A stretch of DNA of 64,000 nt from Escherichia coli (lineage in GTDB: Bacteria > Pseudomonadota > Gammaproteobacteria > Enterobacterales > Enterobacteriaceae): the NCBI RefSeq assembly GCF_003018235.1, contig NZ_CP027437.1; one strand, given 5' to 3'. Positions 55,247 to 64,000 of the stretch are shown here, piece after piece (position 1 is the first letter of the stretch; each line of letters begins with the position of its first letter). The notes beneath the pieces were generated by a model. That model ran no database searches and was not told the origin of the DNA. It saw only the letters and a program-made list of their open reading frames with translations. Position numbers and translations under genes: made by a program.

Positions 55247-55451
55247 GGACATAAATCCATTTTATCAATAAGATACAAGGAAGTGTCAGCTGACAAAAGG
55301 TATTCTATTTCATCTTTTGTCAACCATTCACGGCGCAAATATACGCCTTTTTTTGTGATCACTCCGGCTTTTTTTGATCTTCATGCTTGTATGGTAGTAG
55401 CTCAGTTGCGTAGATTTCATGCATCATGACAAGCGATGCAAGGAATCGAAC

Positions 55452-56666
55452 ATGAAGATCGTAAAGGCTGAAGTTTTTGTTACCTGTCCGGGGCGTAATT
55501 TCGTCACATTAAAAATCACCACTGAGGACGGTATTACGGGCCTTGGGGATGCCACCCTCAATGGACGTGAGCTTTCCGTGGCCTCTTATTTGCAGGATCA
55601 CCTTTGTCCGCAGCTTATTGGTCGCGATGCGCACCGTATCGAAGATATCTGGCAGTTTTTCTATAAAGGTGCTTACTGGCGTCGCGGTCCGGTTACGATG
55701 TCGGCCATTTCAGCGGTTGATATGGCGCTGTGGGATATTAAAGCCAAAGCTGCCAACATGCCGCTTTACCAGTTACTCGGCGGCGCGTCTCGTGAAGGGG
55801 TGATGGTTTATTGCCATACCACCGGTCACAGTATTGATGAAGCTCTGGATGATTATGCTCGTCATCAGGAGCTGGGATTCAAAGCCATCCGCGTGCAGTG
55901 CGGAATCCCTGGTATGAAAACCACCTACGGCATGTCGAAAGGTAAAGGTCTGGCTTATGAACCCGCAACTAAAGGACAGTGGCCGGAAGAGCAGCTGTGG
56001 TCGACGGAGAAATACCTCGATTTTATGCCGAAATTGTTTGACGCGGTACGTAACAAGTTTGGTTTTAATGAACATTTGCTGCATGACATGCACCATCGCT
56101 TAACGCCTATTGAAGCGGCGCGCTTTGGTAAAAGCATTGAAGATTATCGCATGTTCTGGATGGAAGACCCGACGCCTGCGGAAAACCAGGAATGCTTCCG
56201 TCTCATTCGCCAACATACCGTCACACCCATCGCGGTGGGTGAAGTCTTCAACAGCATCTGGGACTGCAAGCAACTGATTGAAGAGCAACTTATCGATTAT
56301 ATCCGCACTACGCTGACCCACGCGGGTGGCATTACCGGTATGCGCCGGATTGCCGATTTTGCTTCGTTGTATCAGGTACGTACTGGCTCACACGGTCCTT
56401 CCGATTTGTCACCAGTCTGCATGGCTGCGGCGCTGCACTTTGATCTGTGGGTCCCCAATTTCGGTGTCCAGGAGTACATGGGTTATTCCGAACAAATGCT
56501 TGAAGTCTTCCCGCACAACTGGACTTTCGATAACGGCTATATGCATCCGGGAGACAAACCGGGTCTTGGCATCGAATTCGATGAAAAGCTGGCGGCGAAA
56601 TATCCCTATGAACCTGCTTATCTACCAGTCGCACGTCTGGAAGATGGCACGCTGTGGAACTGGTAA
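55452..56666 (+). CDS. rspA: Starvation-sensing protein RspA (enolase superfamily, mannonate dehydratase-like)
   Basis: ORF trimmed to [40 protein letters not shown] (404 aa). Confidence 0.9.
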
Positions 56667-56677
56667 GGAGTAAGATA

Positions 56678-57697
56678 ATGAAAAGCATATTAATTGAAAA
56701 ACCGAATCAACTGGCGATTGTCGAACGTGAAATACCCACCCCGTCAGCGGGTGAAGTACGAGTAAAAGTAAAACTTGCCGGAATTTGTGGTTCAGATAGC
56801 CATATTTATCGTGGGCATAATCCTTTTGCGAAATATCCGCGCGTCATTGGTCATGAATTCTTTGGCGTCATTGATGCAGTGGGTGAAGGCGTGGAAAGCG
56901 CCAGAGTCGGTGAACGTGTTGCAGTCGATCCGGTGGTCAGCTGTGGGCATTGCTATCCGTGCTCTATAGGTAAACCGAACGTTTGTACGACACTGGCTGT
57001 ATTAGGTGTGCACGCTGACGGTGGTTTCAGTGAATATGCCGTGGTGCCGGCAAAAAATGCGTGGAAAATTCCTGAAGCAGTGGCCGATCAATATGCGGTG
57101 ATGATCGAACCTTTTACCATTGCGGCTAACGTTACCGGTCATGGTCAACCGACTGAAAATGATACCGTTCTGGTTTACGGTGCCGGTCCAATCGGCCTGA
57201 CGATCGTTCAGGTATTAAAAGGCGTCTATAACGTTAAGAATGTGATTGTTGCCGATCGCATTGATGAACGACTGGAAAAAGCGAAAGAGAGCGGGGCAGA
57301 CTGGGCGATTAATAACAGCCAGACACCGCTTGGCGAGATTTTCGCTGAAAAAGGCATAAAGCCGACATTAATTATCGATGCGGCTTGTCATCCTTCAATC
57401 CTGAAAGAAGCCGTAACGCTGGCTTCTCCAGCGGCACGTATTGTATTGATGGGCTTCTCCAGTGAACCGTCTGAAGTGATTCAGCAAGGAATTACCGGAA
57501 AAAAACTCTCTATTTTCTCTTCACGCTTAAATGCAAATAAATTTCCGGTCGTTATCGACTGGTTAAGTAAAGGGTTAATTAAACCAGAAAAATTAATTAC
57601 CCATACGTTTGATTTCCAGCATGTTGCTGATGCCATTAGTTTATTTGAACAGGATCAAAAACATTGCTGCAAAGTCTTACTCACTTTTTCTGAATAA
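56678..57697 (+). CDS. rspB: Starvation-sensing protein RspB (Zn-dependent alcohol dehydrogenase family)
   Basis: ORF trimmed to MKSILIEKPNQLAIVEREIP (339 aa); GxGxxG and Zn-ligand Cys motifs. Confidence 0.9.
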   Translation: MKSILIEKPNQLAIVEREIPTPSAGEVRVKVKLAGICGSDSHIYRGHNPFAKYPRVIGHEFFGVIDAVGEGVESARVGERVAVDPVVSCGHCYPCSIGKPNVCTTLAVLGVHADGGFSEYAVVPAKNAWKIPEAVADQYAVMIEPFTIAANVTGHGQPTENDTVLVYGAGPIGLTIVQVLKGVYNVKNVIVADRIDERLEKAKESGADWAINNSQTPLGEIFAEKGIKPTLIIDAACHPSILKEAVTLASPAARIVLMGFSSEPSEVIQQGITGKKLSIFSSRLNANKFPVVIDWLSKGLIKPEKLITHTFDFQHVADAISLFEQDQKHCCKVLLTFSE

Positions 57698-57754
57698 TAC
57701 CAATAACGGCGAGTAAGTAGTACGCATCTTACCTCTTTTTTAGAGATAACCATT

Positions 57755-57883
57755 ATGACAATAGAAAAACACGAAAGAAGCACTAAGGATTTGGTGAAAG
57801 CAGCAGTATCGGGATGGCTGGGCACTGCGCTTGAATTTATGGATTTCAAGAGTCATACGTGTCAACTATTTGATAAATATTAA
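57755..57883 (+). pseudogene. ydfJ: N-terminal remnant of MFS transporter gene ydfJ, truncated by prophage insertion
   Basis: 42-codon ORF MTIEKHERSTKDLVKAAVSGWLGTALEFMDFKSHTCQLFDKY reads like an MFS sugar/metabolite-transporter N-terminus and stops abutting the integrase 3' end. Confidence 0.55.
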
Positions 57884-57884
57884 A

Positions 57885-59180
57885 TTAATTTTTCATTGCT
57901 TCGTTATGGGGCATGGTTGGGGCAAACTCGCTTAACTGTGTATTTAACAAAGCTACCTGTGCATTATTGTTTTCAGACATCCATTTTCCGTATACCTGAA
58001 ATACCATTTGCGCATCTGCATGGCCCATCTGGTTTGCTATAAATGCCGGGTTAGCACCAGCTGTCAGCGACCAGCAGGCATAAGTATGTCTCGACTGATA
58101 TGATTTTCGATGGCGGAGTCCGGCACGTTTTATCGCTGCGTCCCACATCTGCCTTATTGAGTCAACGGTAAAATGGTCACCATAATTTTTTACTCTCGCT
58201 GACACTTCAGGTTGAAAAACAAAGGTGCATTTTTGTTTTTCTGTTCTGCCATACTCTCTGAGGTGAACATCAATGATATGCTCTTTGCTCAGTCTCGTTA
58301 ATGTCATCTGACTCCGGAGAGCGTCGATTGCTGGCTTAATAAGATGAATGACCCGATTGGTTCCCGCCTGTGTTTTTGGTACCGTGAAACGGTCTTTTGC
58401 TAAATTTCTCCTGATCATCATTGTTCCATTTTTCAGATCTATGTCCTCCCATCCAAGTGCACACAGCTCACCAGGGCGAACGCCAGTATAAACAGAAACA
58501 CACCATAAATTTTTTGCTTGCTGATTTCTGCACGCATCGATAAGACGGATAAATTCCTCCCGCGAAAGAGGATCCGGAATGGTTCTTGATTCCTTTAATG
58601 GCGAGATCCCCTTAAACGGATTATCTGGCAGGTAACCGTTATCAACACCAAACTGGAACACGGCGTTAAGATTTGTCATGTAATTATTTACAGTTACAGC
58701 CGATCTCCCTGGTTGTGTAACAATATAGTTACTTTTGGGGATCTGGTATCCAGTCAGTAGCTCTTTACGAACCTCCAGTAATTTTTCTTTATTAATCGAT
58801 GAGGCAAGATTTTTTTCACCGATTATGCTCAGGATATTTTTGATGACGGCACGGTATGTGTTGAGTGATGTTTTGGCGACTTCAGTTTCTTTCAGTGCCA
58901 GAAATTTTTCAGCCAGTTCTTTTATGGTTAAATCTTGTCGGGCCTCACCAAATTTTTCCAGATTGCGTGAGGAGGGAAACTGTTTTGCATAGTCGAAAAC
59001 ACCAGTTTTTATTGCGTAACAAACAGAGGAGCGTAGTTCACCTGCAACGCGCCTGTTTTTTGCTGTGTCAGGAACCCCCAGATTTTCCCTGACTCTTACG
59101 CCTTTATAAACAAACCAGATACGTAATTTCCATCCATGGTTTTCCACGCCTGTCGGATATTTCATTTCAACTTCTCTCAT
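57885..59180 (-). CDS. Phage tyrosine integrase (lambda Int family), apparently intact
   Basis: 431-aa ORF with C-terminal catalytic-domain residues consistent with tyrosine recombinases (R...HxxR...Y in ...SRHTYACWSL...); start could be M1 or M6. Confidence 0.85.
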   Translation of the reverse strand: MREVEMKYPTGVENHGWKLRIWFVYKGVRVRENLGVPDTAKNRRVAGELRSSVCYAIKTGVFDYAKQFPSSRNLEKFGEARQDLTIKELAEKFLALKETEVAKTSLNTYRAVIKNILSIIGEKNLASSINKEKLLEVRKELLTGYQIPKSNYIVTQPGRSAVTVNNYMTNLNAVFQFGVDNGYLPDNPFKGISPLKESRTIPDPLSREEFIRLIDACRNQQAKNLWCVSVYTGVRPGELCALGWEDIDLKNGTMMIRRNLAKDRFTVPKTQAGTNRVIHLIKPAIDALRSQMTLTRLSKEHIIDVHLREYGRTEKQKCTFVFQPEVSARVKNYGDHFTVDSIRQMWDAAIKRAGLRHRKSYQSRHTYACWSLTAGANPAFIANQMGHADAQMVFQVYGKWMSENNNAQVALLNTQLSEFAPTMPHNEAMKN

Positions 59181-59199
59181 TAGTTAGTGTGGCTTTTAG

Positions 59200-59451
59200 T
59201 CAAGTAAGATGACGTCTTGGTCTCGCTGATGCCTGGCGCAAAATCCAGCGATCAATTTCTTCCAGGTTGTAAAAGCATGGACTGTTATCCCATGGCATAC
59301 CGTCATGAGCGACATGCTTATATTCCCTTCCTTCCATAAACGATTTTTCCCGGGCCTTTTTTAACGTACCTTTTTTTATTCCTTTCAGCGCAATTAACTG
59401 CTCTTCGGATACCCATTTGCCGGGAGAGACAATCATGATTACTTCGCTCAT
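59200..59451 (-). CDS. Putative excisionase / small DNA-binding protein
   Basis: 83-aa basic ORF immediately upstream of int in the usual xis position; no family match verified. Confidence 0.5.
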   Translation of the reverse strand: MSEVIMIVSPGKWVSEEQLIALKGIKKGTLKKAREKSFMEGREYKHVAHDGMPWDNSPCFYNLEEIDRWILRQASARPRRHLT

Positions 59452-59523
59452 CGATTTCTTTATCTCTTACATCAGACGAGCGCCGGTTGCAGAATACCAG
59501 TCACAACCGGCGACAGTTGAACA

Positions 59524-61995
59524 TTAAGAATCAGCCTGACTCGGGATCAGTTTTTGCCAGATAACTGAAACGTATTTTGCCTGGTAACGGGCGTCATCAA
59601 GTGCATTATGGCGCTCACCTTCGAATGGAATAGCCGTTCTGGCATCGAAGTCTATGGCTTTCCCCAGCTCAACGATTGTGCGTACATCGCGATCGTTGTA
59701 GTAACGCCACGGGCAGGGGATCCCCTGCCGTTCGTATGAACGGCGCAAAATCGTGTTGTCGAAGTTGGCTCCATTTCCCCAAACCTGAACAAAAAATTCA
59801 CCGGAGTTTTCGTCGATAAATTCCCGCAATTGTAACAGTGCATCATCTAACGGGATTTCATCGGTCATAATGGCAGATTGCGCTTCGCGTGATTGCTTAA
59901 GCCACCATTTAATGGTGTCCCGATCAATGACTCCGCCAGCAGTTTCCAGATCGATAGTCTTACTAAATTCCGGTCCCATATCTCCGGTTTGCGGATCGAA
60001 AAATATTGCACCTATTGAGATGATCGGGGCATCAGGATTTTTTCCCATGGTTTCAAGGTCGATCATTAGATGGTCACACGTCCTGCTGGTGGATGTGATT
60101 TCGTGATGACCGTTCACCTTAATTGAGTGATCTGCCGTCTCGCCAGTTTCATTATCGCTATTGTGATGCTGATTGCCGCCAGTGTTCTCCTTGTGTGGAT
60201 GTTCAGCGCCTTCCATTTCCTCCGGATCATCTTCCTGAACTTCAACCTGATACTCTTCATCGAATGTTTCTTGGTATGTTGCGTCGCCCATCACCGCGCC
60301 ACAATCAGGGCAGTTGCCGCCGCCGGTCTGACCGCAGGCGGTGCAGACTTTTTCCACTTCCTGTTGCGCCACTGGTTCAGGCTGTTTCGTTTCTGGCTCG
60401 TTTTGTAACGCATTTGTGCTGTTTTGTTCCGCTTTTTGGTAGTTCCGTTCCGATTCATGCTGGTTCTGGTTCACAGAATCGCGGGTCTGGATCCCCTTAA
60501 CCCATTTCGGATCATTCGGGTCACTAATCCCTTCAACAAATTCACCACGTGATGCAGCAAGCAACTTATCGGCGTCAGGCTGGCTGATATTGGCTGCCTG
60601 CATAATTTTGTTTACTTCGTCAGCGGTAACTTTTATCGGCTCTGGTTGTTCTGAATCTTCAGCGGTATCTACATTTTGCGGTAAGCCCGTGTATGTGCCA
60701 TTTTTTCGGGCAAAATATTCTTCTTTTGTGATTTCAGTGGCGCCAGCAGCCAGTGCCTTATCCAGACCAGAAAGTTTGTTTGCGCGACCGTATTTTTCTC
60801 CGTCCTTATCTGCGAAGAGGAAATAGAACGGCCCCTCACGCTCTACAGATGGTTCAGCTTCCGGCGCGGTTTCATTTTTTGGGATATCAGATACCTCAGT
60901 TTCCACTGCATCAGTTTGTGTTTCTGATGACTGGAGAACATCAACAGTGCCCAGGTCTGTTTCTTCATTCTCAAACACGCCCTTTGTCGTCAGGTATTCG
61001 CAGATATATTTGTTCAGTGCTATGGGATCTTTGTGAATGTCGATCGGACGCTCACGGACAAGGCCAAAAATAGTCTGGCGGTCGTAGCGAAGGGCATCAG
61101 GCTGTTTGCGCATTGATGCCGAGATACGCTTCCAGTCTTCGCGGTCGTTGTCGATAACTTCTTTTTTTGCCCAGCGATGGATGCTGCCGTCAATGTTTCC
61201 GGCATCCACATCACCAGGCCAGAGAGCGTAGGCCAGTTCGTCATCCAGTGTTTTCCATGTCTGCTTGTATTCGCGATGAATGGCAGCAATGACCGGGCTG
61301 ATTTTTCCTGTTGAATTTTCAGTGTACTGTTGATTGGCTCTGGCGCGGGCGAGATCAACAACAGACGTGTATTTTCCGGTTTCCTTGCGTTCACCTTCGC
61401 GACGTTTTTTCCAGATGCGCATCTCTGCCTGAATTTCGGGCCATTTAGCACCAGGAATACATTTATGCTTAACCCACCCAATGGCGTGCAACTTAAGCTC
61501 CGGATACATGGCGTTAACTTCTGGCATTTTCATCAACGCTTCAACGATATGTCCGTCGAATGTTGCCATGTCTTCCTGCAACAATTCCTGTGCGCTAATA
61601 ACCATATCAACGGTGATGTTTTCACATGTGTCGAACTTAACCATGACAGCGTTCTGTACTTCAGGGGCCAGCTTGTCAAAAGTGACGTTCATCGGATCGG
61701 ATTCAGTCTCAACCGGGACAAAAGAAGCAGACTCCTCATCCCAGCGGTTTTCCTGCATATATTCAGCATCCCATGAATCGAGGGCAGGGCGGGGTATGCC
61801 AGGTTTATCCTCGCAGACAATAAATTTATAAGCGCAGTCCTGAGCAGCCGGATAATGTTCCAGGAACTGCCAGTGAAATTTTGCTCGAGCACGGCGTTCG
61901 TCGCCAGCTTCAATGGCTGTGGCTACAGCCACAGCGCCTTCTTCCCTTGTTGCCAGTTCGTCAGGAATAGCGGCGCAAATAAAGACTTTACTCAT
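59524..61995 (-). CDS. Prophage large exonuclease-like protein with C-terminal DnaQ-like DEDDh 3'-5' exonuclease domain and a central CxxC-x9-CxxC zinc-ribbon motif
   Basis: 823-aa ORF; C-terminus carries motifs DLET, WGNGANFDN and HNALDDA; middle carries CTACGQTGGGNCPDCG; acidic low-complexity linker. Confidence 0.65.
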   Translation of the reverse strand: MSKVFICAAIPDELATREEGAVAVATAIEAGDERRARAKFHWQFLEHYPAAQDCAYKFIVCEDKPGIPRPALDSWDAEYMQENRWDEESASFVPVETESDPMNVTFDKLAPEVQNAVMVKFDTCENITVDMVISAQELLQEDMATFDGHIVEALMKMPEVNAMYPELKLHAIGWVKHKCIPGAKWPEIQAEMRIWKKRREGERKETGKYTSVVDLARARANQQYTENSTGKISPVIAAIHREYKQTWKTLDDELAYALWPGDVDAGNIDGSIHRWAKKEVIDNDREDWKRISASMRKQPDALRYDRQTIFGLVRERPIDIHKDPIALNKYICEYLTTKGVFENEETDLGTVDVLQSSETQTDAVETEVSDIPKNETAPEAEPSVEREGPFYFLFADKDGEKYGRANKLSGLDKALAAGATEITKEEYFARKNGTYTGLPQNVDTAEDSEQPEPIKVTADEVNKIMQAANISQPDADKLLAASRGEFVEGISDPNDPKWVKGIQTRDSVNQNQHESERNYQKAEQNSTNALQNEPETKQPEPVAQQEVEKVCTACGQTGGGNCPDCGAVMGDATYQETFDEEYQVEVQEDDPEEMEGAEHPHKENTGGNQHHNSDNETGETADHSIKVNGHHEITSTSRTCDHLMIDLETMGKNPDAPIISIGAIFFDPQTGDMGPEFSKTIDLETAGGVIDRDTIKWWLKQSREAQSAIMTDEIPLDDALLQLREFIDENSGEFFVQVWGNGANFDNTILRRSYERQGIPCPWRYYNDRDVRTIVELGKAIDFDARTAIPFEGERHNALDDARYQAKYVSVIWQKLIPSQADS

Positions 61996-62636: not shown

Positions 62637-64000
<1,364 letters not shown>

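Follow-up and report, generated by a model that had tools for sequence, protein, structure and literature searches.

Does a prophage of Escherichia coli that still carries the genes for its own integrase and excisionase retain the means to leave the chromosome? The question is raised by the right end of the stretch of DNA analysed here, 64,000 nucleotides in length and called the window below, where an earlier note made from the letters alone had described an apparently intact integrase gene with a possible excisionase gene beside it. We consider it highly probable, as the best explanation of the region, that this is the attL-int-xis recombination module of a Qin/mEp460-type lambdoid prophage inserted at about codon 30 of ydfJ. 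The identity of the module, its intactness and the anatomy of its attachment site are established by the comparisons described below.

The flanking DNA is E. coli chromosome, with ynfA-rspA-rspB at 55419-57697 on the plus strand, and the prophage starts beyond these genes. A 42-codon reading frame at 57755-57883 (plus strand) is a stub of ydfJ that encodes the N-terminus of the MFS transporter YdfJ; in an alignment with the intact ydfJ of strain p10A the two are the same base for base until GAATTTATGGATTTC and diverge after it. The frame comprises 31 YdfJ residues and 11 phage-encoded residues, keeps the native promoter region, and ends in a stop codon directly next to that of int, which lies on the opposite strand. 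By direct comparison of att sites, GAATTTATGGATTTC at 57833-57847 is the attL core, located inside ydfJ and abutting the int-xis module. The genes of the prophage that follow read leftward, toward the attachment site. Upstream of xis and int in the same operon, and intact in the window, is the gene for an exonuclease of 823 aa (59524-61995, minus strand; Pfam and the listing of open reading frames), with YdfE_N and YdfE_C domains and a C-terminal Rv2179c-like 3'-5' exonuclease domain. Beyond it come ydfD, dicB and the small RNA DicF (62640-62691, minus strand; Rfam RF00039, full length, 72.5 bits against a gathering score of 48), which is part of the dicBF early-left operon reading toward xis-int, and finally an IS100 element that leaves the window.

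The integrase gene occupies 57885-59180 on the minus strand and encodes an arm-binding tyrosine integrase of the lambda type, as judged from the listing of open reading frames, Pfam and PHROGs. The earlier note had given the protein as 431 aa without an internal stop, with which the listing agrees exactly in coordinates and length. A second methionine (MKYPTG, 59165) is the integrase start in RefSeq and in most database entries and gives a protein of 426 aa; the motif GAGAAG lies 5 nt 5' of its ATG, and no Shine-Dalgarno-like sequence was seen before the first int ATG. Both lengths occur in public databases, and from the sequence context the start at 59165 seems the likelier one. The excisionase gene lies at 59200-59451 on the minus strand, immediately upstream of int, with 19 nt between its stop codon and the first int ATG. 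Its product, described in the earlier note as a small basic protein in the xis position, is exactly 83 aa long (78 aa from an alternative start) and is indeed basic, with a pI of 9.46 and 15 K+R residues versus 11 D+E.

The domain search that had been proposed as a check of these two proteins confirmed both an integrase and an excisionase. In Pfam, Int matches Arm-DNA-bind_2 (PF12167) at residues 9-72 with 79.7 bits against a cut-off of 22, and Phage_integrase (PF00589) at residues 206-397 with 66.2 bits against a cut-off of 27.1, while the 83-aa protein matches DUF1233, "putative excisionase", with 105.4 bits against a cut-off of 22. PHROGs likewise calls the first an integrase and the second an excisionase (PHROG 539), which makes xis the gene of a DUF1233-family recombination directionality factor. 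NCBIfam returned only sub-threshold Xer-type matches for Int and none for Xis. The idea that the two reading frames arose by chance or are miscalled genes can be dismissed, given domain E-values of 1.6e-22 and 4e-18 for Int and 1.2e-30 for Xis, and given the thousands of almost identical entries in the databases and the homologues across the Enterobacteriaceae.

Intact reading frames could still encode an inactive enzyme, and the absence of catalytic residues on alignment had been named in the earlier note as evidence that would speak against excision. No such absence was found. In a family alignment of 28 members with 58-98% identity, drawn from Escherichia, Enterobacter, Shimwellia, Salmonella, Citrobacter, Cronobacter, Klebsiella and other genera, the catalytic positions R235, K269, Y361, R364, H387 and Y397 (431-aa numbering, used throughout) are all invariant. 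They lie in the contexts YTGVRPGEL (R235), VPKTQAG (K269), YQSRHTYACW (R364-H365), MGHADAQM (H387) and FQVYGKW (Y397). Tyr361 occupies the position of lambda H308 (His-I), and we considered whether it marks a missing catalytic residue. This was rejected: the tyrosine is invariant in the family and is also found in IntR of the Rac prophage, which excises, and it is thus a family trait rather than a lesion.

The nearest solved relatives of Int by sequence are Tn1549 Int and XerA; the lambda Int chain was not returned by Phmmer against PDB sequences at E <= 0.01. An AlphaFold model built on the alignment has a mean pLDDT of 67 with a weak C-terminal third, and its N-terminal part shows strands at residues 5-10, 13-20 and 23-32 and a helix at 35-54 with a pLDDT of 80-89, corresponding to the arm-binding fold. 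All 30 of the PDB matches that Foldseek found for the model at E <= 0.001 are tyrosine recombinases, including Tn1549 Int, XerA, IntI, Cre and full-length lambda Int, the last aligned over about 400 columns; the TM-scores are low because the domain arrangement differs. From these sequence comparisons we conclude that the genes are real and intact and that Int is very probably catalytically competent. The literature searched holds no experiment on this integrase, and its function is therefore assigned by homology and by its presence in phage genome records.

Among characterised systems, IntR and XisR of Rac are informative relatives. IntR is 43% identical to the window Int over its full length, has the same combination of an Arm-DNA-bind_2 domain and a catalytic domain, and is likewise encoded directly downstream of a DUF1233-type excisionase gene. 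Rac excises in K-12 (PMC3105296; PMC4632033), and XisR stimulates this excision and binds attR (PMC4632033). The window Xis aligns with XisR (YdaQ) at 26% identity over 61 residues (BLASTP, E 3e-5) and with the DUF1233 NMR structure 2kvv (E 0.004), and by sequence the 83-aa protein is a DUF1233 excisionase distantly related to the experimentally proven XisR. The two systems also differ: Rac is integrated at ttcA and the window prophage at ydfJ, and XisR, with 71 aa, lacks the basic C-terminal tail of the window protein. The window module thus belongs to a different specificity group and is not an orthologue of the Rac pair. Sp10 of O157 Sakai, which excises experimentally, was considered as a prophage of the ydfJ site and rejected, since it uses the Rac site ttcA (PMC2669165).

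The likeness to lambda is one of architecture. Both have a heterobivalent tyrosine integrase with an N-terminal arm-binding domain (known in the window from sequence and model), a core of about 15 bp with arm sites on both sides (candidate sites in the window), a small basic directionality factor encoded just upstream of int, and the prophage order attL-int-xis. Unlike in lambda, the arm domain is PF12167 and not PF09003, the excisionase belongs to DUF1233 and not to the lambda Xis family, a tyrosine replaces H308, and the 3' end of int contains the candidate P' arm sites.

A GC-rich hairpin lies between the exonuclease stop codon and the xis start (59470-59505, minus strand), with a 9-bp stem (GCCGGUUG.../...CAACCGGC), a folding energy of -27.1 kcal/mol and a z-score of -2.9 versus shuffles. 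It has no U-tract and is therefore not a classical terminator.

A close point of comparison is Qin of K-12, whose integrase the earlier note had described as defective and interrupted by an IS element. The MG1655 annotation bears this out: it labels the gene beside rspB an integrase "missing N-terminus", lists next to it a partial IS2 transposase and a truncated exonuclease, and has no xis in this region. What is left of the K-12 integrase corresponds to the window Int from residue 45 onward, the first 44 residues being gone, and an IS2 remnant lies at the break. Excision of Qin was undetected in K-12, which was attributed to the inactive intQ (PMC3105296). The two prophages are otherwise closely alike, sharing the chromosomal site between rspB and ydfJ, an attL that is identical apart from 2 SNPs, integrase DNA that is 99.6% identical over the common part, and the neighbours exo/ydfE, ydfD, dicB and DicF. 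Unlike in K-12, int, xis and the exonuclease gene are all whole in the window, and IS100 lies upstream of dicF. K-12 ydfE is a truncated remnant of the gene for the 823-aa exonuclease. Many E. coli and the Tritos and mEp460 genomes carry in whole form the module of which the "intQ pseudogene" of K-12 is a derived, damaged state.

The earlier note had implied that the intact form is unusual, which does not hold. The 2-kb stretch 57600-59600 is present at a coverage of at least 80% in 2297 of 5426 complete E. coli genomes (about 42%), and in many others ydfJ is unoccupied and whole. Int belongs to a 90%-identity protein cluster of 5989 members, and the literature describes ydfJ as a site where lambdoid prophages integrate, an Stx2a phage among them (PMC8309913, PMC8767318, PMC6379469). 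The intact int-xis module is already known and widespread, and nothing about it is novel. Across genomes the immunity, cargo and late regions attached to the int-xis-exo-ydfD-dicB block differ widely, and the variable content includes QueH, a KAP NTPase, Nudix/HAD, EMARD/DUF7380 genes and extra integrase fragments. Such varied prophage bodies are as expected of a mobile, mosaic lambdoid module, and mosaicism at the ydfJ site is heavy.

This combination of a conserved module and variable bodies, with int-xis kept at about 99% identity, could also be read as a sign of active lysogeny, in which the module is retained not for phage propagation but because reversible excision restores ydfJ. On integration ydfJ loses its promoter and about 30 codons from its start, which a precise excision would give back (PMC6379469). 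However, the same conservation is expected from a recent horizontal spread by active phages that carry the module, K-12 and many other strains have lost int with no known cost, and there is no evidence of regulated excision at the ydfJ site. We regard such a switch as most improbable and retain the simpler reading of a lambdoid phage recombination module.

Phage genomes support that reading. Four deposited lambdoid phages (Tritos, HannyBb, PhiR42_1 and mEp460_ev081) are 99.2-99.6% identical to the window at the nucleotide level over the whole 1672-bp attP'-int-xis segment, and they carry a contiguous attP where the window has an integrated attL copy. In the two that were inspected, Tritos and mEp460_ev081, the order is pin, a ydfK-like gene, attP, int, xis, exo, ydfD and dicB, and their integrases differ from that of the window by 3-5 residues. 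Compared with Tritos there are 3 nucleotide differences in int and 2 in xis, all of them non-synonymous and too few for statistics.

With the phage and bacterial forms at hand, the recombination junctions could be compared. The attL of the window reads ...GCGCTTGAATTTATGGATTTC followed by AAGAGTCATACG..., the empty attB of strain p10A ...GCGCTTGAATTTATGGATTTC followed by CAGTTATATTCG..., the attR of the related prophage in strain YJ6 ...ACACCTGTGAATTATGGATTTC followed by CAGTTATATTCG..., and the attP of phage mEp460_ev081 ...ACACCTGTGAATTATGGATTTC followed by AAGAGTCATACG...; for the window prophage, an attR of the form ...TGTGAATTATGGATTTC followed by CAGTTATATTCG would be expected, and after excision the junctions GAATTATGGATTTCAAGAG (attP) and GAATTTATGGATTTCCAG (attB). 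The phage side of the YJ6 attR and the phage side of the window attL together make up the mEp460 attP, joined at an 11-nt core, TTATGGATTTC (57837-57847). Since these 11 nt are common to all four sites, strand exchange must fall within them. The attP core of Tritos reads ATGCATTTC, while mEp460, attB, attL and attR read ATGGATTTC; this one-base difference in the 11-nt core could lower the efficiency with which Tritos integrates at the standard ydfJ site.

Candidate binding sites for the recombination proteins lie close by. Two tandem TGGGGCA repeats on the plus strand, 11 bp apart (57907-57913 and 57918-57924), are candidate P' arm-type Int sites within the 3' end of int. In the phage attP the motif TGGGRCA occurs as tandem pairs at -134/-123 (P arm) and at +73/+84, the members of each pair being 11 bp apart, and none of 2000 dinucleotide-preserving shuffles reproduced this double arrangement. 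Between the core and the repeats, TCAACTATTTG in the P' arm (57862-57872, plus strand) fits the consensus TCAAnnnnTTR when read from the sequence. We consider the TGGGRCA pairs good candidates for arm sites, and TCAACTATTTG is a candidate IHF site.

On the paradigm of lambda and Rac, a mechanism of excision can be inferred. Int would act as a heterobivalent tyrosine recombinase, with its N-terminal three-stranded-sheet domain on the arm-type sites, for which the TGGGRCA pairs are the candidates, and with its C-terminal domains bound to the core, where Tyr397 would carry out the cleavage. Together with the DUF1233 excisionase and probably IHF, Int would synapse attL with attR, strands would be exchanged inside the common TTATGGATTTC, and the outcome would be a restored ydfJ and a released circle carrying attP.

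For the copy in the window, excision by such a route is plausible, with near even odds given the IS100 element and an attR outside the window. The window contains Int, Xis, the attL core and the candidate P' sites, all in a form that barely differs from that in the deposited phages. The prophage leaves the window at position 64000, and its attR lies beyond; in YJ6, the nearest complete relative, a prophage of about 50 kb ends in an attR with a matching core, beside a 3' fragment of ydfJ. The IS100 element (IS21 family) extends on the plus strand from 62845/62855 to 64000, where it leaves the window, as seen in a comparison with the IS-free relative L007, which has the same int and xis alleles and matches the window up to 62854. 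The draft assembly GCA_040083855.1 is an example of an IS100-free sibling. The insertion point of IS100, taken in the direction of the operon, is some 155 nt before DicF; the element reads against the dicB-to-int operon and separates the immunity and early-promoter side from dicF-dicB-exo-xis-int. Among complete genomes YJ6 alone covers the IS100 junction, in two pieces, and its own IS100 lies 138 bp away. The istA gene of the window element has a nonsense codon (W271*, TGG>TGA, 63743-63745), and this copy is therefore probably not autonomous.

In a crude scan the DNA directly before xis and int showed no sigma-70-like promoter, and around int-xis nothing above shuffle expectation was found for a private promoter or terminator. 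The two genes are therefore probably expressed from the early leftward operon, which IS100 interrupts upstream of dicF. These observations favour the alternative that the reading frames are intact and the prophage is nevertheless effectively grounded, with no excision at a useful rate. Possible causes are the loss of early-promoter transcription through IS100, poor arm binding by an Int with Trp17, and damage to, or loss of, attR or other prophage parts outside the window; frequent intQ mutations are also a published route by which Qin is grounded (PMC6379469). In contrast, spontaneous low-level excision, as in Rac, needs little transcription, and neither the catalytic residues nor the attL core nor the P' sites are altered. 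We regard a grounded prophage as a possibility to be taken seriously but one that is somewhat unlikely.

The proposed defect in arm binding stems from two substitutions that distinguish the window from Tritos, mEp460 (mEp460_ev081) and the YJ6 prophage, all of which have Int G17 and Xis E71. Int G17W is due to a single G>T change at 59132 (codon 59130-59132), and Xis E71L to a tandem GA>TT change in the codon at 59239-59241. Gly17 is invariant in the other 27 of 27 aligned Int homologues (58-98% identity) and lies, in the AlphaFold model, in the turn of the beta1-beta2 hairpin of the arm-binding domain, which adds to the case for a grounded prophage. So does the distribution of the allele: W17 and L71 occur together in all six loci with the exact window Int, and this Int is rare, found in 25 contigs compared with the 5989 members of the 90% cluster. 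The co-occurrence also suggests a lineage allele that is inherited vertically. Only in draft assemblies were the exact Int and Xis alleles found; among the complete RefSeq genomes no record matches int-xis in full, and ETEC6 comes closest with 99.8% identity.

However, IntR of Rac, which is functional in excision, has an arginine at the position equivalent to 17, so that a bulky residue is tolerated in a relative, and we have accordingly downgraded G17W as an inactivating change. Xis E71 lies one residue beyond the last position aligned with XisR and, judging from that alignment, probably does not belong to the conserved part of the domain. We regard neither substitution as demonstrably damaging. 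It is conceivable that they are neither neutral nor damaging but form a co-adapted pair at an Int-Xis contact that alters the control of directionality or arm recognition. E71L sits at the start of the basic C-terminal tail of Xis, and the C-terminal tail of lambda Xis contacts the arm-binding domain of Int. We nevertheless consider a co-adapted pair very unlikely.

In conclusion, the finding of a whole attL-int-xis module at this locus matters little beyond annotation, and its main consequence is that the immobility of the ydfJ prophage of this strain cannot be assumed. If attR is intact, excision would restore the gene for the YdfJ transporter and could mobilise dicB/DicF together with the prophage cargo. 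Since ydfJ is a known landing site of Stx2a phages, occupancy of this site and excision from it affect which converting phages integrate there.
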